From a virus (Duplodnaviria > Caudoviricetes): a stretch of 64,000 bases of DNA. The notes under the pieces are model-generated. The model was given only the letters and a program-made list of their open reading frames with translations. It searched no databases and was not told the origin of the DNA. The position numbers and the translations under genes were made by a program. Positions 2,945 to 49,568 of the stretch are shown in pieces (the stretch's first letter is position 1; every line of letters begins with the position of its first letter). The stretch spans positions 32,001 to 96,000 of IMG/VR virus record IMGVR_UViG_3300011871_000002, one strand, 5' to 3'.

Positions 2945-5900
2945 TTATCTGTTCACTGCCATGGAGACAGGCGCAGATGTCATGGGTCGCGATGCCTGCA
3001 CCTTGGCAGGGCGTGCTACTTCAGCAGGCTTATCCAGCACCTGGGACTTCGGTGCTTGGTTAGTCCAGCCTTTGAGCGCATCACGCACTTCGATCATCAC
3101 CTCCAGTGACTTCTGGTGCACCTTGTGGGATGCTTCCAGAATCTGGTTGGTGGTCGTCAAACGTTCAGCAGCCATGTCGCGCTGCTGCTGTTGCTGTGCG
3201 TTGACGTTCAAACTACGTTGCGACATGTACGGACCAGTCGCTTCAGGTGGAACTTCACTGCCACCCACGGCAACGGCAGCAGCCACTACTGGTTTGGCCA
3301 CACTTGGCGCCGCTGCCGGACCAGTAAATGGCATGGGTGACTGATCCGATACCGGGATACTTACTGCTTTGGGCTTTTGCTGGAGATTGCCGTTAGCATC
3401 CAGAGAAACACCGTGATCACTGGCCTTCTTACTCAGCGCCGCAGTCAAGGCCGCAGCTTGTTTGCCGGTAGCCGTGGTAGGTTGCCCGGCTGGCACCGGT
3501 GTTGCGCCACCCGCTAAGAGTTTCTCCGAGCCATCGTTCAGGCCAAATCTCTGACCCTTAGCACGCACCAAGCCATTGAGCTTGCTGTAGACTTGCCCGA
3601 TGGTCAAAGGCGAACCATTGCTGTAGAAGATGCTCGCGTTCGCTGCTGCCTCTGCCGGCATGACGTTTGCTGCAATGGCATTCGGATCGGCCGAGAGGAA
3701 CTTCTTGGCACCACCTGCACCCAAGAAGTGCGCCAGATACAGATCGGTGTCCGTGATCTTGCGACCCAGGCCACTGAGCATCTTGGCATTCATCTTGAGG
3801 AACTCACCACCGAGAAGCGCATTGGCGCGCGCATCTGTCGGCGGGGTACCCGGTGCAATCCCGTACTTGGCGCCGAACTTACGCATCATGTCACTCCACG
3901 TGTCGCGGGTGAACTGATACAGACCGGTAGCCGAGCTAGTGGATGCCTTGACGGTTGGATTAAAGCCCGACTCAATGGCCGCCATGGTGGCCATCAGTTT
4001 CTCGTCGACACCCGTCATCTGGGCCGCTGCCGAAATAGTGCCCCGCAGCGCCTCCCACGAACCACTACCCTTTGGCAGTGGAATCGCATTGATGTCCCCG
4101 CCTGTGCCATTACCGGGGTGATTGATTTCTCGCCCACCACTGAATGCTTCACTGACCATGTCTTTCGCGTTGTTAAACACCCGCGAGAAGATATTGCCCG
4201 ACACAGGTTTGCCTTGGGAATCTTGACGTTGACCGAACAGTCGCGAGAAGAAGCCTTGCTGCTGCTGGTTCTTCACTTGGCTGCCCGTACTATTGTTGGT
4301 GATCCCAACTTGCACATTGGTCGACTCTTCAATAACCTTGGACTGCTTGGCTGCATCCTTGATGCTCTGGAAGTTGCCTTCGATGGTTTTCGCATCGTTG
4401 TTGAGCTGGTAGCCCGGCCACGGAGTGGTGGCCACCTGCCAGACCGACACAGGCGAGCCGTTTTCACTACCCTTGGCCGTATAGACCATGGTGGCGACAT
4501 CAACCGCTTGGGTCGGCATCAAAGCCAGTTTGGCTTGGTCCAACCTATTTTTCTTGGTGGCCGAAGCCATTGCCGTCACATAGGCCAAATACGTCGGCAG
4601 ATACCGGCTGTTAAACCAGTTAATCCACGAGTACGCATCGTCATTGGACAAACCCTGTACACCAAAGGCTGATCCCATGGTGGCGATCATGTTTTCCACC
4701 GACCCCGTCCAGGTGGCCACTCCGTCGCGGATGGTGAGGCCCTTGGCGACTTCGGCGTCCATCAGGAACAGTGTACGAACTTTGTCGGCTTCCAAGTCAC
4801 GCAGACCATAGGTGCGATAACGCAGCGCCGTCATGGCGTCCAAACGGCCGGTATTGAAGATGTCGGCCATGACACTAGGACCGCTCATGCTCGTTACCCC
4901 GGCACCAGTGGCAACCGCCGCCGCTCCAACTTTGGCTTGCTGGGTGAGCTGGTTGATTTTGGCCTTATCGGCACTTTGGTACAAATTACCGTTGGCGTCC
5001 ATCCGCACACCAGAATGACTGGCTTTGCGATCAAGCGCTGCTTTCAGTGCGGCAGCTTGGCCTCCGGTCGACGTCGCGGCCAGCGCGGCAGCGGCACCGG
5101 CAGTTCCTGCCGCAGGCTTTGCTGGAGCACTCGCTTCTTCCTTCTTGAGTGCCGCCTCTGCCACTTCAATTGCCGCTGCCACTTCGCGGGACCCGACTGC
5201 GAGTTGGCCCTGATCTGGGAAAGGCGAGGTAACGACATCGTACGGTCCTCCGGCAAACTTTGCGACGTTGAAGTATTGGCGTTTCTGTGCCGGTGTCAAG
5301 TCCTTCACATCTTGCAGGGACTTTTTGGCATCCACCGCCCGCAGTGCTGCCATGTTGTTCAGGAAGACTGGCTTGAAGCGGTTATCGAACCACTGGATGA
5401 AATTCTCCAGTTGCTGCGGGTTTTTGACATCGATACCAAACGCATTGACAAGATCTCGAATATTGATCTTCTTCTCGTCCAGCAGGGCTTTTCCTGCCGA
5501 GAACACCACAGCAGGTTCGAGCATCTTTTCCACACTGAACACCGCTTGCAGGTGGGTTTCATCCGACGCTAAGAAACCATACTGAGCATAACGCACGGTC
5601 GAGTAGGTATCGAGCTGGGCGCGAGTGAAATACTTGTAGCCGTAGTAGCCAGCAGCTCCAACAGCGGCAACTGCCAAACCAGTCAACACAACTGGTGCCG
5701 AAACCAACGCTACCAGGCCACTACCTAACGCACCCAAGCCACTCAGCGCGAGGCTACCCAGACCCGACACTGCGGCGCCAGCGCCTGACAAGAGGCCGCT
5801 ACCGAGGCCACCTAAGGCAAGACCACCCAGTCCGAGAGCACCCCGTGCGAGCATACCACCACCTCGCAACAGGCCACCCCCGGCACGGCCCAACAGGTTC

Positions 5901-14641: not shown

Positions 14642-16053
14642 TAAGCAGTATTTTGAATACGACTGAAGTTTACACGCCTATCCTGTGAGAAATCGCTAGG
14701 AGGCAAACATGTTAAAAGATGAACCAAAGGAAGTCGACGGATTTCCTGGGTTTTATGAAATACCTGGATTTGGAAATTACGCTATCTCTCGCCAAGGAGT
14801 GGTAATCAATTTGCGTGCTGACAGAAAATTAGTCGGCAGTACAAATACCAACGGTTACCATCACTACCGTATCAGAAAAGACGGTGGTGATTTCTTTACA
14901 ATTGGCCGGCATCGATTACTTGGTTTCGTTTTCAAAGGAGCCAAAAAAACTGTACTCGACAGGGTAATCAATCACCTCAACGGAATTAAAGGTGATGATG
15001 ATCTTGATAACTTGGAATGGACTACATACCAAGGAAATGCCGAACACGCTGGTAAACTGGGACTGACACAGTCTTGTTTACCCATCGTAGTGAGAGATGT
15101 AGAGTCTGGTAAAGAAACAGAATACCCAAGTATGGTGGAGTGTGCACGTCACTTTGGCGTGACAGAAGATTTTATCCATTATCGCGTGCGTAGCGGGGGT
15201 AGTCGAGTTTTCCCAGAAAAGAAACAGTATCGGTTAGCAAAGATAGAAGGTCCATGGTTTGTGCCAGAAAACGTCGAAATGGCGCTACTTAAAAATGGAA
15301 CTTCTAAAAAAGCAAGGGTGAAATATGTTCTTACGGGCGAAGTGTTTGAGTTTGACCAGCTAACAAAGTTAGCGGAGTTTCTTAAGATACCACCCCCTAC
15401 CCTGACACTGTGGTTAAAAGCCACGGGTCAACCGGTATTACCAGGTTACATTCAACTCAAAAAAGCAGAGGACACCACTCCGTGGCGTATTGTCGAGGAC
15501 CCTTATCGGGAACTTGATCGGTACACAGGTAAAAGATCGGTTGTGATCACGCACGCAAAAAGCAGAACACAAACGATCTTCTCTTCCAGTATCGAGTGCG
15601 CAAAACTCATGGGTTTAAGTGCCACTACTCTTCATTACCGTCTACAGTCAAAAGGAATGGTAGCATTCTCTGACGGTTACATGTACAGTTATTATTCGGA
15701 TAAAGTCTAAACAAAATATTGCATGGTCCTGTTAGGTAGCGATGCTTAACAGAATTTCCTTTAATTGACGGGGACCCCTTTAGAGCCTTGTACACCAACT
15801 TACTACAGCAATGCGGTAAGGGCCAGACTAACTACCTGGGTACGGTAACAGAGACAAGGATTAGGAAATCCGCAGCGAAGCCCCCACTGGGGAGAACGTT
15901 CAACGACTATGGCCTTATCAGCCAGTACCACCAGGCGGTGGGAAACAGGGAACCTCCCATGTGGAGGAAGATATAGTCTCGACATCCGGGGAAAGCCCGG
16001 AGCTGCGCGTAATGGCGCGGGCAGAGGTGTAGCGCCCTCTGCTGAAGATATCG
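14642..16053 (+). mobile_element. Group I self-splicing intron with HNH homing endonuclease
   Basis: Exon 1 ends in U and intron ends in G; core elements AATTGACGGG (15763), AATCCGCAGC (15867), GTTCAACGACTA (15898), AAGATATAGTC (15968); P7 GACTA/TAGTC; splicing restores ...DVDD-PRRVNFIG in frame. Confidence 0.92.
14709..15710 (+). CDS. Intron-encoded HNH homing endonuclease (NUMOD4-HNH with C-terminal HTH repeats)
   Basis: IPGFGNYAISRQG, HRLL, INHLNGIKGDDDLDNLEW; repeated S-x-x-ECA-x-x HTH modules; GGAGG RBS; lower GC than flanks. Confidence 0.9.
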   Translation: MLKDEPKEVDGFPGFYEIPGFGNYAISRQGVVINLRADRKLVGSTNTNGYHHYRIRKDGGDFFTIGRHRLLGFVFKGAKKTVLDRVINHLNGIKGDDDLDNLEWTTYQGNAEHAGKLGLTQSCLPIVVRDVESGKETEYPSMVECARHFGVTEDFIHYRVRSGGSRVFPEKKQYRLAKIEGPWFVPENVEMALLKNGTSKKARVKYVLTGEVFEFDQLTKLAEFLKIPPPTLTLWLKATGQPVLPGYIQLKKAEDTTPWRIVEDPYRELDRYTGKRSVVITHAKSRTQTIFSSSIECAKLMGLSATTLHYRLQSKGMVAFSDGYMYSYYSDKV

Positions 16054-17172
16054 CCAAGAAGGGTGAACTTCATCGGTATTCAAAACGGGCACACGGTGGC
16101 TTGTAGCGGATACCGTCAAATGCCAGTGCGTACTGGTTACGAGCAAGTCATCGCGCACCGCACGGGTTCGCTCTTTGCCAGCACGGCCAAGAAAGATGGT
16201 CGGGTGGTGTCGGTATCCGAAGACGGTATCGTGGTGGAATACAGCGATGGCGAGACCAAAGGTTTCCCGCTCGGCCGCAAGTACGGTTCGGCAGCGGGCC
16301 TGACGATTCCACACACCCTCATTTCAGAAATGAAAGAGGGTCAGAAGTTCAAGGCCGGGGAAGTGATTTCCTATAACCCCGGTTTCTTTGAGCGCGATAT
16401 CCTCAATCCCACCAACGTGGTATGGAAGCAAGGCGCCCTGGTAAAGGTAGCCCTGATGGAACGCGCCGACACGCTGGAAGACTCTTCCGCCATCTCTCCA
16501 CGGGTGGGTGAGTTGCTGCGTACCAAGGTTACCAAGATTCGCATGGTCAAAATGAACTTTGACCAAAAGATCACCCTCAAGGTAAAAACCGGTCAAGCGG
16601 TGAAAAGCGAAGATATTTTATGTGTAATTGAAGACGCCGTCACTGCAAATCAAAACTTGTTTGACGAAACGTCGCTCGATACCTTGCGTGTGCTGAGTGC
16701 GCAAACACCCACCGCGAAAGCCAAGGGTGTGCTGGAACACATCGAGATGCGCTACCACGGTGACAAAGAAGACATGTCCGAATCACTGCGCCAGTTGGCC
16801 AACACCTGTGATAAGGAATTGGTCAGGCAGCAAAAGGCCGCCGGGAAGAAACCCTATACCGGCAAAGTCGACGACAGCTTCCGGGTCGAAGGTGACCCCT
16901 TGATGCTGGACACTCTGGTCATCACGTTCTATATCACGAGTGAGATTCCAGCAGGTGAAGGCGACAAAGGCGTGTTCGGGAATCAGCTGAAGACGGTGTT
17001 TGGTAAAGTCTTCACCGGTGAAGTCAAGAGCGAAAGCGGGGTCGAGATCGACGCCATCTTCGGTCAGAAAAGCGTGGATGACAGGATTGTGAACAGCCCT
17101 CCTGCCATGGGTACCACCAATACCCTGCTGAAGGTACTCGCCAAGCGAGTCGTGAAAGCCTATCGCAGTTAA
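16054..17172 (+). CDS. Virion RNA polymerase beta subunit, exon 2
   Basis: TLEDS and GDKGVFGNQLKTV motifs; 372 codons; spliced product 1425 aa. Confidence 0.9.
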   Translation, partial: PRRVNFIGIQNGHTVACSGYRQMPVRTGYEQVIAHRTGSLFASTAKKDGRVVSVSEDGIVVEYSDGETKGFPLGRKYGSAAGLTIPHTLISEMKEGQKFKAGEVISYNPGFFERDILNPTNVVWKQGALVKVALMERADTLEDSSAISPRVGELLRTKVTKIRMVKMNFDQKITLKVKTGQAVKSEDILCVIEDAVTANQNLFDETSLDTLRVLSAQTPTAKAKGVLEHIEMRYHGDKEDMSESLRQLANTCDKELVRQQKAAGKKPYTGKVDDSFRVEGDPLMLDTLVITFYITSEIPAGEGDKGVFGNQLKTVFGKVFTGEVKSESGVEIDAIFGQKSVDDRIVNSPPAMGTTNTLLKVLAKRVVKAYRS

Positions 17173-30391: not shown

Positions 30392-32962
30392 ATGAGCGTC
30401 GACTACATTGTCAACCATGCCATCTTGAACGTCTGGTGCAATCCACAGCAAGACTTGCAGTCGATTGTGAAGCCCAAACGGATCACTCGCGCCATTGGCG
30501 TATGGCAAAATTTTGAAGCCGGGAAGAATACCTATTCCTTGCCGGACAACACCAGTCGTTTTCACGTATTTCAAGTGGGTCAACTCAGCCCCGCTCTGAT
30601 GGGTCTGCTCGAAACCCATGGCCTGTGGAAACTGGTGGCCGATACCTGCCGTGAACGCAAAGTCATGGTGGATATTTACAGCCAATTCGGTATCGAGTTC
30701 CCGCGTACCCAAAGTTGGTACATGGTGACGAAAAACCGTAACCTGCTTTTTGCAGTGAAGGAGGTGCCGGGCTTACTGAGTCTGCGCGAGAACGACATCT
30801 TCTTGCGCGTGTACACCAATGCATTCTTCCAAAGTCGGCGCGCCGGCATCATGGAAGATGATATCCAAATCTATGGCAGTTCGCCAGCCACGCGAAACGA
30901 CATCGTCGCCATCCAGGATCTTTTTAACGCCTGGCAGCAACGCGATGGCGCTACGTACGCGTTCGTCAACGGTTACAAAGTCTCCTTCTTGAACCTGTTC
31001 ACGGTGGCGGTGGGTGACTATGTCGAAATCGTACACGACAATTCGATCCGTGACATCATCGAATTCCCAATCAAGGATTTGAAAGCGTTCACCAGCACGC
31101 TGGACAACAAGCAAAAGTACCTGCTCCACTATCCGGGTCAGGGTGGCGGCACCATCGACTACCACGATGATGTGGACTTTTTCTTGGTACGCAAGAATCC
31201 CTCGACGGGCAGACATCGTGGTGTGTATTACCACCGCAATGCCGCAGGAGGCGACGCGGTGCGCATGGTTACCCACAAAGACTATGCGATCCCTGTGGAC
31301 TACATCGAAAGCTACGCTGCCAAGAATCCCACTTGGCCCGTAAGTGAACTCGTTCTGGTGGCACACATCCGCTATTCCGGATACCATCGTCCGTTGATTG
31401 ACGAAAATAACCGCATCAAAGAACTGTACAAGATGCACGACGACGACCTGATCGACGCCATGCTCTCTAGCAGTGCCGTGGTGGATAACTGGACGGCAGC
31501 GGTGCTGGAACAATCCGCCTACACTGAGATCATGCGTTCCCTGTCGGCAAACATGACGGCGCGTCTGGTACAGGACGCCTATGGCTACAACGCCATCACC
31601 AAAATCTTGGCGGACTCCCCGCACTTTGTCAAGCTCTCGTCGAACCAGCGCACGATCGAATTGCCCTACGGACTGCAACAGGATTCGGCCATGTTCGAAT
31701 ACGATGCCAATGGCCACCTCTTGGGGTATTACCAACATACCCAAGGCGCGGTGTATTCTTGCCGCAATAATGCTGCACGCCTGGTGGAAGTGCTGGCCGG
31801 CACAATCAGTACGCGACTCGATGAAACTTACGGCCAGCAAGTGAGTGACCTTGACATGACCGCGGACTACCGGTTCTACACCTGCGGGATCGAGGTAGGT
31901 GGCGTGGTGAACAACCGCTGGGAAGACGTCACCGATAGCGGCAAGTACAGCATCTTGAACGGCAAGGTACAGTGGCTCACCAACCCGGCCACCACCTACA
32001 CTTTGGTGCGTGGTAACCGCCACATCTTGGCCTACAACTTGGAATTGGATAGCAGTAGCGGGGTGGTGGAATTTAGCCTGACGCATCTGGCCAACCGGGG
32101 CGGTTCGATCACCAACCGGGTCATGCAAATCCCGATGGGCGAACTCGACGTGTTCATGAACCGTCGCTCTTTGGTTGAAGGGGTGGACTACTACGTCAAC
32201 TTCCCCCAGATCGTGATCGTCAATAAGGCATACCTGAACGACAACGGCAAGCAGCAGATCACGGTCCGCTTTACGGGGCTGTGTAAGTCCGATCTGTCCA
32301 GGGAAGCATTTAACGAAAGGGGCTTTATCGACCACGGCTTGCTTTCGGCCAACGATCGCTTTGATATCCGCGACGACAAGGTGCAGCGCATCGTGGTGGG
32401 TGGTGCACTGTATGACCGGCGTGAACTGCTTTTTGCTGAAGAAGATGCTGCGGTCCGGGTACCGGATGCCCGTAATGGCCTTCCTTACCTCATCCGCGAT
32501 CTGGTGGTACCGGTGCGCGGTCTGGCAGCGGACGACACGTACGAGCTGCGTGCCAAGTCGCTCGTGATCGACAAGAAGGTGAGCGACTACCTGACGGAAA
32601 AACTGCCGCAGCAACCGTTCACCAACCCCAACGCGATCGTCGACCTGTACCCGGTGGTCAGTCCATTCTGTGCCAAACTGCTGTTCGATCTGAAGAACGG
32701 TTTCTTGGTCGACCCGCGCATCAAGAGCTTCTATGCGGATGCAGATGTGTATGAAATCTGTAAACCGTATGAGTATCTGCTCGCGTTTGACCCCACTCAG
32801 GATGCATTGCGCCCTGATCCAAAGTATGTCGCCATCCATCCGCACCACTTGAAAACGGTGGTGGAAGTGGATCTGTACTGCTATAAATTCCTCGCCCGTG
32901 CGGTGAAGCTGTATCTGAAAGACCGAGTGAACTTGTCGCACTTCCTCGTGCTTTCGGCTTAA
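30392..32962 (+). CDS. Virion structural protein (phiKZ gp27-like, probably baseplate)
   Basis: 856 aa; NVWCNPQQD N-terminus; synteny. Confidence 0.72.
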   Translation: MSVDYIVNHAILNVWCNPQQDLQSIVKPKRITRAIGVWQNFEAGKNTYSLPDNTSRFHVFQVGQLSPALMGLLETHGLWKLVADTCRERKVMVDIYSQFGIEFPRTQSWYMVTKNRNLLFAVKEVPGLLSLRENDIFLRVYTNAFFQSRRAGIMEDDIQIYGSSPATRNDIVAIQDLFNAWQQRDGATYAFVNGYKVSFLNLFTVAVGDYVEIVHDNSIRDIIEFPIKDLKAFTSTLDNKQKYLLHYPGQGGGTIDYHDDVDFFLVRKNPSTGRHRGVYYHRNAAGGDAVRMVTHKDYAIPVDYIESYAAKNPTWPVSELVLVAHIRYSGYHRPLIDENNRIKELYKMHDDDLIDAMLSSSAVVDNWTAAVLEQSAYTEIMRSLSANMTARLVQDAYGYNAITKILADSPHFVKLSSNQRTIELPYGLQQDSAMFEYDANGHLLGYYQHTQGAVYSCRNNAARLVEVLAGTISTRLDETYGQQVSDLDMTADYRFYTCGIEVGGVVNNRWEDVTDSGKYSILNGKVQWLTNPATTYTLVRGNRHILAYNLELDSSSGVVEFSLTHLANRGGSITNRVMQIPMGELDVFMNRRSLVEGVDYYVNFPQIVIVNKAYLNDNGKQQITVRFTGLCKSDLSREAFNERGFIDHGLLSANDRFDIRDDKVQRIVVGGALYDRRELLFAEEDAAVRVPDARNGLPYLIRDLVVPVRGLAADDTYELRAKSLVIDKKVSDYLTEKLPQQPFTNPNAIVDLYPVVSPFCAKLLFDLKNGFLVDPRIKSFYADADVYEICKPYEYLLAFDPTQDALRPDPKYVAIHPHHLKTVVEVDLYCYKFLARAVKLYLKDRVNLSHFLVLSA

Positions 32963-47051: not shown

Positions 47052-47064
47052 AACCACATATTAC
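47052..47064 (+). promoter_or_regulatory. Putative early promoter AACCACATATTAC
   Basis: Motif copy upstream of phuZ. Confidence 0.7.
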
Positions 47065-47169: not shown

Positions 47170-48183
47170 ATGAACGAACAAAAGAAAACCGGTACTGTCC
47201 AACTGTTTGCCAATGGCGGCTTGGGCTTCAACATCGGTGCCCAGCTGCAAGCCTTCTGTGACAACAGCGTCGCCGGTGCCGCGCACCTGAAGATCGGCTA
47301 CATCGACACGTCGGATTCGAACATGACCGACACGATCGACGCCAGCAACTGCTACTTCCTGCCGAAAACCGACGGCTCCGGCAAGAACCAGGGCGAACAC
47401 CTCGACCTGATCGACCAGCACGCCAAGCAGATCCTGCAAAAGTTCCCGCCATCGAACGACCTGAACATCGTCCTGTCCTCGGCCGGCGGCGGCTCCGGCG
47501 CCGTGATCAGCAGCACGCTCGCCTCGATCATGATCGAGGAAGGCCACAACGTGATCGCGATCGTGGTCGGTTCGACCGGTGACCTGAAAGAAATCCGCAA
47601 CACCAAGAACGTCATCACGACCTACCAGAACGTCTCCGACGAACTGGGCAAGCCGATCTCGATGGCCTACTTCCAGAACAGCGAAGCCACCCCGCAAGCG
47701 AAGGTCGACCGCGCGATCGTGTCCCTGGTCGGCGCCCTGTGCGTGCTGTTCTCGCGCCAGAACCACGGCATGGACCGCCAAGACCTGAAGCACTGGCTCC
47801 AGTTCAGCGAGAAGAAGATCACCAACTACGGCCCGCGCCTGGCACTGCTGAGCATGTTCGAAGGCAACCAGCCGCTCGGCGACATCGGCGCTGTCATCAG
47901 CGTAGCCACCCTGACCAACGCACAGTCGGGCAGCGGCATCTCGCAGACGCCAGAATACCAGTGCGTCGGCGTGATCCCGGACTACGCGGACAAGGTCGTC
48001 ATCGGTGCCGCGCCCGTGCACTTCGTCAACTCGACCGGCAAGTTCGCCAGCATCAAGGACTCGCTCGACGAGATGAAGAAGAACATCGACCGGCAGCGTG
48101 AAGCGTTGGTCGAAGAAGAATCGGTGAACCTGGCCGCAGTCAAGGGCAAGGCAAACCGCCGGGGCATCGTCGTTGACGATTAA
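47170..48183 (+). CDS. phuZ: Phage tubulin PhuZ
   Basis: GGLGFNIG, IDTSDSN, GSGK, tubulin signature GGGSG; C-terminal GIVVDD knuckle. Confidence 0.95.
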   Translation: MNEQKKTGTVQLFANGGLGFNIGAQLQAFCDNSVAGAAHLKIGYIDTSDSNMTDTIDASNCYFLPKTDGSGKNQGEHLDLIDQHAKQILQKFPPSNDLNIVLSSAGGGSGAVISSTLASIMIEEGHNVIAIVVGSTGDLKEIRNTKNVITTYQNVSDELGKPISMAYFQNSEATPQAKVDRAIVSLVGALCVLFSRQNHGMDRQDLKHWLQFSEKKITNYGPRLALLSMFEGNQPLGDIGAVISVATLTNAQSGSGISQTPEYQCVGVIPDYADKVVIGAAPVHFVNSTGKFASIKDSLDEMKKNIDRQREALVEEESVNLAAVKGKANRRGIVVDD

Positions 48184-48583
48184 ACCCCGCATCCTGGTGT
48201 TAGGGGGTGGCCGGCTCGGCGTGGAATTACTTGTCCGGTTAAGGGAGATGGCGGATGTGGTAGTTTACCACCCCGACGAAGTCGCTTTGGTTGATGAAGC
48301 CATCGAGGACAAAGTCGCCCAGCTCGAAGAGTTGTGTGCGCCTCACTTCTCCCCTGTGCCCCGTCTCGCTGAGCAGTTTGACAAATGTCTTCCTGCGTAT
48401 ATCGACTATGGCTGGGGCACTGACCCGGCTGTGCTGTCGAGACCCATCGAGAACACCATGCCTACCAATCCCCGTGTGTGGTCAACACGGGGACAAAGCG
48501 ACAACCTCCGGAATGCCGGCTGCCACAAGGTAAAGGGCCTTGTCAGGCAAGTGATCATGCCGGTCCGTCGTGTACGTGTTTAA
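48173..48583 (+). CDS. Hypothetical protein with Rossmann-like N-terminus
   Basis: ILVLGGGRLG; TTG start overlapping the phuZ stop. Confidence 0.5.
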   Translation: MTIKPRILVLGGGRLGVELLVRLREMADVVVYHPDEVALVDEAIEDKVAQLEELCAPHFSPVPRLAEQFDKCLPAYIDYGWGTDPAVLSRPIENTMPTNPRVWSTRGQSDNLRNAGCHKVKGLVRQVIMPVRRVRV

Positions 48584-48721
48584 AAAATAGGCTTTAGACC
48601 GTAGCAAAGGCGAGTGCCACCATCACTTCGCGCCCAAAGGTAACTTGACCCTTTTCGCAATTGACAACCTGCCTCCACCGGAGGGCAGAGGTCGCGTTAC
48701 ACTTGATCAGTTCCGCCCGGA

Positions 48722-48879
48722 GGTCACCGCGCTACTTAGACAGACTGAGTAGCCGCTGAGCCAGACGCCGAGTACTCGATCTGAAACGCAATGACCAGCA
48801 AGGGAGAGGGATAATTCGAGCCGCTGACCACATTCGTGTGGAAAGCATCTAGTGCCGTCACGCCCCTCCCCTTGCACCA
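48722..48879 (+). ncRNA. Two tandem structured RNA modules
   Basis: GGTCA/TGACC and GCAAGGG/CCCTTGC closing stems, both ending ACCA; shared AGCCGCTGA-stem-AAA core. Confidence 0.45.
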
Positions 48880-48898
48880 CCGCAGTAGTTATATCAAA

Positions 48899-49002
48899 GT
48901 CGAGACGGGCGGATGTTGGTGGACGCACAGCCAAAGATGGGAAACCATGCGAGTAGCTGCGATCCTTTTTAGGACCCGGAGGTTCGATTCCTCCTCTCGA
49001 CA
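48899..49002 (+). ncRNA. tRNA-like RNA with no canonical anticodon loop
   Basis: Acceptor GTCGAGA/TCTCGAC-A; T arm GGAGG-TTCGATT-CCTCC; class II-like D arm; long variable arm; 24-nt insert in the anticodon arm. Confidence 0.75.
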
Positions 49003-49021
49003 TCATTGAAATGAATAAAAC

Positions 49022-49568
49022 GTTTCTTGTCACTCTTCTCACGAGGGGTAGCAGGAAACGTTTTATGTTCGATTAAGGAGATTTGAATTATGGCCAATGT
49101 TACCCCATATGGTGTTGATCCTGAAAAGGACAACGCTATTTTGCGTTTTCCTACTGGATTGACTGATTCGGAAGAACATCAAGGCCTCAAGAAACTCATG
49201 CAATTACAATTACAGGCACTAGAACCTAATTTCTTGCTGGAAACCAACCCAAGAGGTGTTCGACTCAAATGCCTACCAATTCCCGCAGTCACGAGCGGCT
49301 TTACCACTATGCTGACAGCGTGGATCACACAGCTTGTCATGAATCCTGCACGTAATCTGCCGCGACAAGATATCGCAACCGACCCTAAGCACTACTCGCT
49401 CAGTGTCTTTTCGAAAGGAATTGTGTTTGTCAATATTGTTCCACTGACAAATACTCCTGACGAGGAAGGTTTCTTTTTGTTCTCGTGCGGTGACGCCGTA
49501 ATAGTCTAAGGTTTATGGGTTTCCTGCTACTCTTCGTTAAGAGGGGTAGCAGGAAACGTTTTATGCCG
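49022..49568 (+). repeat. Direct-repeat hairpins flanking ORF 49090-49509
   Basis: GAGGGGTAGCAGGAAACGTTTTATG identical at 49043-49067 and 49541-49565. Confidence 0.8.
49090..49509 (+). CDS. Hypothetical protein
   Basis: 139 aa, TAAGGAG RBS, lower GC. Confidence 0.75.
   Translation: MANVTPYGVDPEKDNAILRFPTGLTDSEEHQGLKKLMQLQLQALEPNFLLETNPRGVRLKCLPIPAVTSGFTTMLTAWITQLVMNPARNLPRQDIATDPKHYSLSVFSKGIVFVNIVPLTNTPDEEGFFLFSCGDAVIV

Follow-up and report, generated by a model that had tools for sequence, protein, structure and literature searches.

A gap of 506 nt without a gene (48584–49089) lies behind the phage tubulin gene of an uncultured virus, and the question is what this gap encodes. It belongs to the window, that is, the whole stretch of 64,000 nucleotides analysed here (positions 32,001 to 96,000 of IMG/VR virus record IMGVR_UViG_3300011871_000002), and it is bounded by a 136-aa ORF after phuZ and by the next ORF. 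An earlier note, made from the letters of the window, had placed a cluster of structured RNA modules at 48590–48879 and had read it as a processed array of small RNAs sharing one duplicated motif. Comparison with related phages answers the question as follows: positions 48594–48879 are a plus-strand, multi-domain structured non-coding RNA, conserved within one clade of uncultured jumbo phages that form a nucleus. It is well supported that this RNA is a new family, of a known general kind, whose position in the early phuZ operon is fixed. Nucleus-forming jumbo phages have been studied almost wholly through their proteins, and a 2026 review of them gives non-coding RNAs one sentence (PMC13282480).

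Genomic Setting

The source record is a 218.7-kb IMG/VR virus record that is 82% complete. The window encodes the PhuZ tubulin and a divergent family-B DNA polymerase of the type usual in phiKZ-like phages, and the phage is therefore taken to be a nucleus-forming chimallivirus. Cultured phages are only distantly related to it, the best PhuZ identity being 35% (Ralstonia phages RP31/RP12). The gene phuZ (47170..48183, plus strand) matches PHROG 4733, tubulin PhuZ, with E = 1.8e-77, and its product also gives weak Pfam matches to Tubulin and TubZ_C_2. The 136-aa ORF (48173..48583, plus strand) follows, and it stands directly before the RNA in 9/9 contigs of the family. Its product carries the conserved block W-x-TDPAVLSRPIEDTMPT; the N-terminus is hydrophobic and rich in Gly, and the C-terminus is basic. 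Pfam and PHROG searches with the product gave no match, and its AlphaFold model has a pLDDT of 49.5. No tRNA genes were found by ARAGORN in the window or in the whole genome.

The 9-mer ACATATTAC, which resembles an early promoter, lies upstream of phuZ in the window (47056..47064, plus strand) and is located 75–128 nt upstream of phuZ in 8/8 phages. In these 8 phages it was not found between the small ORF and the RNA, and a sigma-70 promoter scan found no promoter. Downstream of the RNA, the window carries a tRNA mimic (48899..49005, plus strand), which is a separate finding with weak Rfam matches to tRNA-Sec and mascRNA, and then a terminator-like hairpin followed by TTTTATGTT (49017..49064, plus strand), read from the sequence. 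Of the members with known downstream sequence, only the window and L004 have the mimic (L101 is cut off by its contig end). In L010, an equivalent terminator hairpin with TTTTTATGCC comes directly after the last domain of the RNA, so that a terminator and a promoter-like TTTATGCC motif lie between the RNA and the next gene. Since the promoter-like motif occurs only upstream of phuZ and terminators stand downstream, the element is assigned to the end of the phuZ unit. The RNA is inferred to be transcribed as the tail of an early unit composed of promoter-like motif, phuZ, small ORF and RNA.

The arrangement is different in L005–L009, where the next start codon follows 17–21 nt past the tail of the last domain with no terminator between. 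This spacing would suit a riboswitch or leader regulating the downstream gene, which is nevertheless a very unlikely reading: the tRNA mimic and a terminator intervene in the window, a terminator and the TTTATGCC motif intervene in L010, the Shine–Dalgarno sequences lie outside the structure, and no Rfam riboswitch family was matched. Because of the terminators before the next gene in the window and L010, the element cannot serve the downstream gene as a dedicated leader.

When the whole gap is folded, the non-conserved spacer GUGCCACCAUCACUUCGCGCCC (48612–48636) pairs with the D-arm side of the mimic, GGGCGGAUGUUGGUGGAC (48907–48925), in competition with the acceptor stem of the mimic. This pairing is probably due to chance, because L004 has no such spacer.

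Members of the Family

The relatives were reached through PhuZ homologues in a collection of 5.8 billion proteins, which led to long syntenic contigs. The family consists of nine contigs of related uncultured chimalliviruses with a PhuZ identity of 41–57%, and the RNA occurs once per genome. They have a common gene order, namely DUF7484 (minus strand), phuZ, the same small ORF and a gene-free gap; the small ORF is uncalled in three of the syntenic contigs, yet it is clearly there. Positions 48662–48879 align in all six of L004–L009. The first covariance model was built from seven sequences, and two sequences unseen by it were then found by covariance model: L010, whose PhuZ is only 41% identical, at 74.6 bits (E = 3e-21), and L101 at 91.6 bits with the match cut off by the contig end.

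Beyond the nine members, model R2 found nothing in the more distant relatives L011–L013 except a P1-like hairpin in L013, a metagenomic contig, and it had no match in four cultured phages searched over their full length, namely Ralstonia phages RP31 and FLC4-4C, Burkholderia phage FLC9 and Xanthomonas phage LucasX. Rfam searches of 48590–48879, at gathering thresholds and at E <= 10, returned noise only. A BLAST search of the gap and the surrounding 10 kb against 50,697 phage records, as well as direct IMG/VR searches with the two flanking small proteins and PhuZ, gave no match. The 18-base structural pattern of hairpin P1 was found in 82 metagenome (JGI) stretches, among which one fits the model and is the known L004 phage, while the other 81 do not; in IMG/VR the pattern was found in three stretches, all on contigs already known, so no new members were added.

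The more distant relatives also have gene-free gaps of 660–870 nt after phuZ (L011:4139–4797, L012:4997–5869, L013:5006–5747 and, in Burkholderia phage FLC9, L104:3500–4270), which hold other structured-looking sequence. The gaps of L012 and L013 have CCTTCGATGGAC in common, a hairpin followed by (C)ACCA is seen at L013 5524–5570, L011 about 4556–4599 and L012 about 5625–5678, and all the distant gaps end with a hairpin and TTTATGCC; the models of the RNA family do not match them. A scan for a stem of at least 7 bp followed by ACCA found the last domain of the RNA in five members and missed the looser candidates in L011–L013; therefore, conservation of the tail is not claimed beyond the nine-member family.

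Overall Fold and Covariation

The comparative fold consists of five hairpin domains in a row, H-1, P0, P1, D1 and D2, with the single strand UUGACAACC between P0 and P1. The minimum-energy fold of 48605–48883 in the window gives P0, P1, D1 and D2 (z = -2.65). Covariation was assessed on ten matches, that is, the nine members and the P1-like hairpin of L013, refitted to a model carrying the proposed structure. Standard pairs occupy 80% of cells, as compared with 37–47% when the partners are slid by 1–3 columns, and 27 pairs are changed on both sides, as compared with 9–15 after sliding. A covariation score of 0.258 was obtained, which was reached in 0/500 shuffles (0.148 ± 0.011), while slid partners score 0.07–0.11; some of these counts reflect shared ancestry, because the family is known from only nine sequences of one clade. 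Since a fitted alignment favours its own structure, the figure from the unfitted alignment is also given: RNAalifold counts 21 compensatory pairs there. The structure-carrying model aligned D2 poorly because this domain has two variants, and D2 was accordingly dissected by anchored motifs in the eight complete members.

These results bear out the general picture of the earlier note, namely a structured RNA of a class absent from Rfam, made of independent modules, the last of which is acceptor-like at its end. The conservation and covariation in relatives that it asked for are seen in the nine contigs, where compensatory changes keep the helices. Its outer bounds were about right as well; the conserved region reaches to about 48594 on the 5′ side and extends 5′ of the two modules that had been described through two more hairpins.

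It would be extremely improbable, in the light of these changes, that the locus is not an RNA gene but an overlooked protein-coding gene or a site acting at the DNA level (an origin, or a site of packaging or recombination). Pairing is preserved by compensatory changes, and an excess of G-U pairs in the hand-dissected helices fits the plus strand. The lengths of alignment gaps are not confined to multiples of three (12/82 are), and no frame is conserved. The observation that the region has no convincing ORF holds: there are only frames of 32–41 aa on either strand, together with one of 111 aa on the minus strand, which cannot be conserved. As for the strand, a hand count in well-aligned helices gave 7 G-U versus 1 A-C pairs, whereas the model-fitted alignment has 39 versus 36 and does not separate the strands; the plus strand is thus favoured because G-U outnumber A-C in the hand-dissected helices only.

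The 5′ Part: H-1, P0, P1 and the Single Strand

The 5′ end (48594..48634, plus strand) is the weakest part of the structure and consists of the conserved block GACCGTAG and the tentative hairpin H-1. The block, GAC[CT]GTA[GC], aligns in 8/9 contigs, L010 being the exception. The stem of H-1 (GGCG AGTG / CACT..CGCC, 48609–48634) is predicted in the window, and other stems stand at the corresponding position in relatives. The next hairpin, P0 (48636..48654, plus strand), is closed by AAAGG / CCTTT in the window and is formed at the same place in relatives by other sequences, such as CCAAGC/GCTTGG, ACTGAGC/GCTCAGT, ACTGG/CCAGT and ACCAGT/ACTGGT; 4/6 of its pairs (helix 1) are changed on both sides.

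Hairpin P1 (48669..48688, plus strand) has 4 + 4 bp, an NCC loop and a bulged base, which is G except for U in L008. The hairpin proposed at these positions proved exact: as helix 2 of the alignment it is paired in 100% of cells, 5/8 of its pairs are compensatory, and all pairs stay intact across 10 sequences. The distant relative L013 carries it too.

Between P0 and P1 lies the nearly invariant single strand TTGACAACC (48661..48669, plus strand), which reads T[G/A]ACAACC in all members. Unpaired, invariant over 9 nt and set between covarying hairpins, it has the usual look of a small-RNA seed, and the element might then be a trans-acting, base-pairing sRNA in which UUGACAACC is the seed for phage or host mRNA. 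This is improbable in view of the target searches. The complementary 8-mer GGTTGTCA has 4 plus-strand copies in the 218.7-kb genome, which is about the chance number, and no complementary 9-mers recur within ~4 kb in 8 phages, each locus having 3–9 of them against an estimated ~8.6 expected. Apart from this, a plus-strand enrichment of ACAACCTG (11 vs 2) was considered and set aside as a codon effect; the other genomic copies lie in coding sequence and have no hairpin.

Domain D1

D1 is an irregular hairpin of 107 nt (48690..48796, plus strand; fold z = -2.4), which is composed of P2a (GGTC/GACC), P2b (GCGTT/AACGC), conserved internal loops and a cap, P3. P2b covaries, with GCGT/ACGC in one clade and GCAG/CTGC in the other. 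All strings quoted by the earlier note are present where it placed them, and its GCTACTTAG/CTGAGTAGC stem (48731–48753) is in fact the cap P3 of the conserved hairpin, the sequence of which differs in every clade. Its module 1 folds better than shuffles when taken alone (z = -3.2). However, the GGTCA/TGACC closure from 48722 does not survive the comparison: in the conserved fold, GACC (48793–48796) pairs with GGTC at 48690–48693, followed by GCGTT/AACGC, and neither GGTCA at 48722 nor the CAGA/TCTG stem has a counterpart in relatives or is used in the best full-domain fold of the window. That both modules end in ACCA is correct for D2, but not for D1, whose ACC lies within a helix; relatives have GACCT, GATCT or GATCC at this place.

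The core of the small-RNA array reading, in which D1 and D2 share a duplicated AGCCGCUGA-stem-AAA(C)GCA and act as a multi-site protein sponge, has to be judged at this point. The 9-mer of the duplicated core, AGCCGCTGA, does occur twice in the window, 68 nt apart, and 13/300 shuffles equal this, but the duplication is not conserved in relatives. In 7 relatives, the longest words common to D1 and D2 are 5–7 nt long, lie at different places and are no better than those of shuffles, so the two domains have nothing in common beyond chance. In addition, the two copies differ by homology in their structural roles: AAACGCA forms the 3′ strand of P2b in D1, whereas AAAGCA forms the P5b strand in D2. 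With a core that is not conserved and two domains of different architecture, the array or sponge is largely refuted and would be quite a surprise.

Domain D2 and Its tRNA-like End

D2 (48798..48879, plus strand) is a rod-like hairpin of 82 nt with the 3′ tail ACCA at 48876–48879. In the window it consists of P4 (7 + 5 bp with a bulged A), CGAGC/GCCG, GCT/AGC, a GA/AA internal loop and P6 (CCACA-TTCG-TGTGG). It folds in the way that had been proposed for module 2, with z = -3.7, and 8 phages retain every one of its helices. The order of elements is the same in all eight complete members: P4, a junction, CG-N-GC, (C), GC[A/U], G[A/C] and P6, and then on the 3′ side [A/G]A, [U/A]GC, 6–7 nt, GCCG, a junction, P4′ and a four-base tail. 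P4, P5b and P6 covary, and the length of the domain ranges from 74 to 85 nt.

The terminal helix P4 begins with G-C, and its first 6–7 pairs from G+1 are standard in 8/8 members. It has 12 bp in the window (one bulge), 10–12 in L004, 12 in L006–L008, 11 in L009 and 8–9 in L010; in L005 it has 11 bp by hand (6 + bulge + 5), and the greedy count of the script is 9. The tail is ACCA in 6/8 members, AACA in L009 and AACC in L010, and in every member the CCA leads into an A/U-rich single strand. The D2 of L007 measures exactly 76 nt, and its pairs G1-C72 to G7-C66, A73 and CCA74–76 match the standard tRNA numbering. D1 and D2 are separated by 1–4 nt, a spacing that resembles dimeric phage tRNA precursors.

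The features of a canonical tRNA that are found in D2 are a 7-bp acceptor from G1-C72, the discriminator A73, an encoded CCA and a length of 74–85 nt. A canonical anticodon loop (7 nt, U33, purine 37) is seen only in D2 of L006–L008, and no cloverleaf is recognised, since 48590–48879 has no Rfam match to RF00005 at E <= 10. ARAGORN, run on 12 loci with relaxed, intron and mitochondrial settings, called no tRNA in any RNA element; its single call in mitochondrial mode is in L004, on the opposite strand and downstream of D2. The possibility that D2 is a decoding tRNA was rejected, as it has no D arm, T arm or elbow, ARAGORN and Rfam are negative, and the distal loop is not conserved. This loop is AUCAUGA or AUCAUAA, 7 nt long and anticodon-loop-like with U33, CAU and purine 37, in L006:5620–5693, L007:3918–3993 and L008:5615–5689; L004 has UGUCAUG at this place, L005 and L009 have GUCA, and the window has a UUCG tetraloop. 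The anticodon-like form may be a trace of tRNA ancestry, or it may be chance.

D2 occurs in two variants, one with a tetraloop P6 and GTGCCGTCACG, the other with a 3-bp P6, a 7-nt loop and AGAGCCGTAAG. The modules are separable, since the grouping by D2 does not follow that by D1: by D2, the window, L005 and L009 stand against L004, L006–L008 and L010, while by D1 the window, L004, L101 and L010 stand against L005–L009. This mismatch suggests that co-infecting phages have recombined at the junction of D1 and D2.

Proposed Processing of the Element

The reading that is favoured here, with a probability just short of even, is that the RNA is a tRNA-like processing element, which in addition gives rise to stable small RNAs whose conserved internal loops probably bind protein. 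D2 would copy the minihelix formed by the acceptor and T arm of a tRNA, with G+1, a coaxial helix of 11–12 bp and a single-stranded A-C-C-A, and from this mimicry it is inferred that D2 is recognised by the tRNA-maturation enzymes of the host. RNase P is predicted to cut between A48797 and G48798, and RNase E together with 3′ exonucleases would trim the RNA after CCA. Such cuts would punctuate the early polycistronic transcript, setting the 3′ ends of D1 and of the phuZ message, and in five relatives the same cuts would set a leader of 17–21 nt for the next gene. A stable, tRNA-sized RNA of 74–85 nt would be released, and the nearly invariant loops of D2 (CG-N-GC / GCCG; GCA-GA...AA-UGC) and of D1 would most likely bind a protein.

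It has been reported that the ruler of bacterial RNase P is the 12-bp stack of acceptor and T stems, that the 3′ RCCA pairs with its P15 loop, and that the enzyme also cleaves hairpin substrates, such as pre-4.5S RNA, phage M3 RNA and the C4 RNA of P1/P7 (PMC11143913). D2 has both features of such hairpin-type substrates, namely a helix of ~12 bp and a single-stranded 3′ RCCA (ACCA in 6/8). Three points count against this reading. The CCA is not universal, given AACA in L009 and AACC in L010; D2 is without the T-loop/D-loop elbow, which is the normal contact of the specificity domain of the enzyme; and transcription takes place inside the phage nucleus, which may affect when host RNase P meets the RNA. 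A gene for a CCA-adding enzyme is absent from the genome.

The main rival of the processing reading is that the element is purely a cis-acting mRNA structure, whose hairpins stabilise the 3′ end of phuZ or insulate it from the downstream cistrons; the ACCA would then be incidental and no free functional sRNA would exist. The element always stands at the end of the phuZ unit, a terminator comes after it in both L010 and the window, 2/8 members have a tail other than ACCA, and a nearby search found no trans targets, all of which would suit such a structure. However, plain stabilising hairpins need no near-invariant loops, no helix fixed at 11–12 bp and no invariant 9-mer, and the reassortment of D1 and D2 variants as separate modules is also hard to reconcile with it. 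On balance the cis-acting structure is considered unlikely, though it deserves serious weight.

Comparison with Known RNAs

The nearest analogue in layout is the pair formed by species 2 (rnaD) and species 1 (rnaC) of phage T4, which are phage-encoded, non-decoding, stable RNAs arranged head to tail in a cluster processed in the manner of tRNAs. The T4 rnaD is not tRNA-shaped and ends ...GCACC, and rnaC, which has a T arm, follows 6 nt later; in the window, similarly, D2 ends ...GCACCA and the tRNA mimic follows 19 nt later. To our knowledge, the function of the T4 species 1 and 2 RNAs has still not been established. There are differences as well: rnaC and rnaD sit among eight real tRNA genes, whereas the phage of the window has no ARAGORN tRNA gene, and the mimic partner is present in only 2 members with known downstream sequence. 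Homology is not indicated, as model R2 had no match in the T4 tRNA/rnaC/rnaD locus (L102).

C4 RNA of P1/P7 (RF01695), pre-4.5S RNA and M3 RNA are small RNAs of phages or bacteria that are not tRNAs, yet RNase P generates their 5′ end by acting on a terminal helix that has a CCA-type 3′ tail (PMC11143913). The element described here is much larger than such substrates and has several domains. C4 RNA is cut out of its own operon transcript. For the C4 family, no Rfam match was obtained at E <= 10, and no complementary targets were found within ~4 kb in 8 phages. In plant mitochondrial t-elements and in the mascRNA of MALAT1, an embedded tRNA-like fold recruits RNase P or RNase Z, and the processing sets the ends of the flanking RNA and frees a small tRNA-like RNA (PMC1920247, PMC8457004). 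These RNAs are cloverleaf-like with an elbow and are eukaryotic or organellar, whereas D2, which lacks D and T arms, is a straight rod. C4, the t-elements and mascRNA are analogues in mechanism only.

Two further classes were compared. For bacterial Y RNA (YrlA), there was no Rfam Y-RNA match, and TROVE and RtcB are absent from the 218.7-kb record (82% complete). For tmRNA, ARAGORN was negative, including permuted forms, there was no Rfam match, and the terminal helix closes D2 only.

Possible Role and Minor Observations

D2 imitates the part of a tRNA that is recognised by RNase P, the CCA-adding enzyme, synthetases and several anti-phage toxins. A speculative and rather doubtful extension of the processing reading is that D2 is a rod-shaped, non-decoding stand-in for the acceptor arm of tRNA, which, after its maturation by RNase P and CCA trimming, occupies or distracts proteins that act on the tRNA 3′ end. 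The candidate targets are host defence toxins that cut or modify the acceptor stem or CCA end, or proteins of CCA addition, aminoacylation or elongation-factor function. If this were true, a phage shielded by its nucleus would also protect translation, a process that it cannot shield, and, together with the neighbouring tRNA mimic, the element would be the first tRNA-style transcript punctuation in a nucleus-forming phage. If the RNA is processed as predicted, it would show how nucleus-forming jumbo phages cut their long early transcripts, and it would provide a defined, testable RNA for the manipulation or shielding of the host tRNA machinery by giant phages. The cultured Burkholderia phage FLC9, which has unrelated structured sequence after phuZ, offers an experimental entry point.

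Two minor observations were made outside the element. In L006:1–35, ~4 kb upstream of phuZ, a gene fragment has a weak Pfam match to ribosome modulation factor (PF04957). In the window, 15692–16001 is a Group I intron, which matches Rfam RF00028 at 51.9 bits, more than the gathering score, and spans the junction of ORFs 14709–15710 and 16063–17172.
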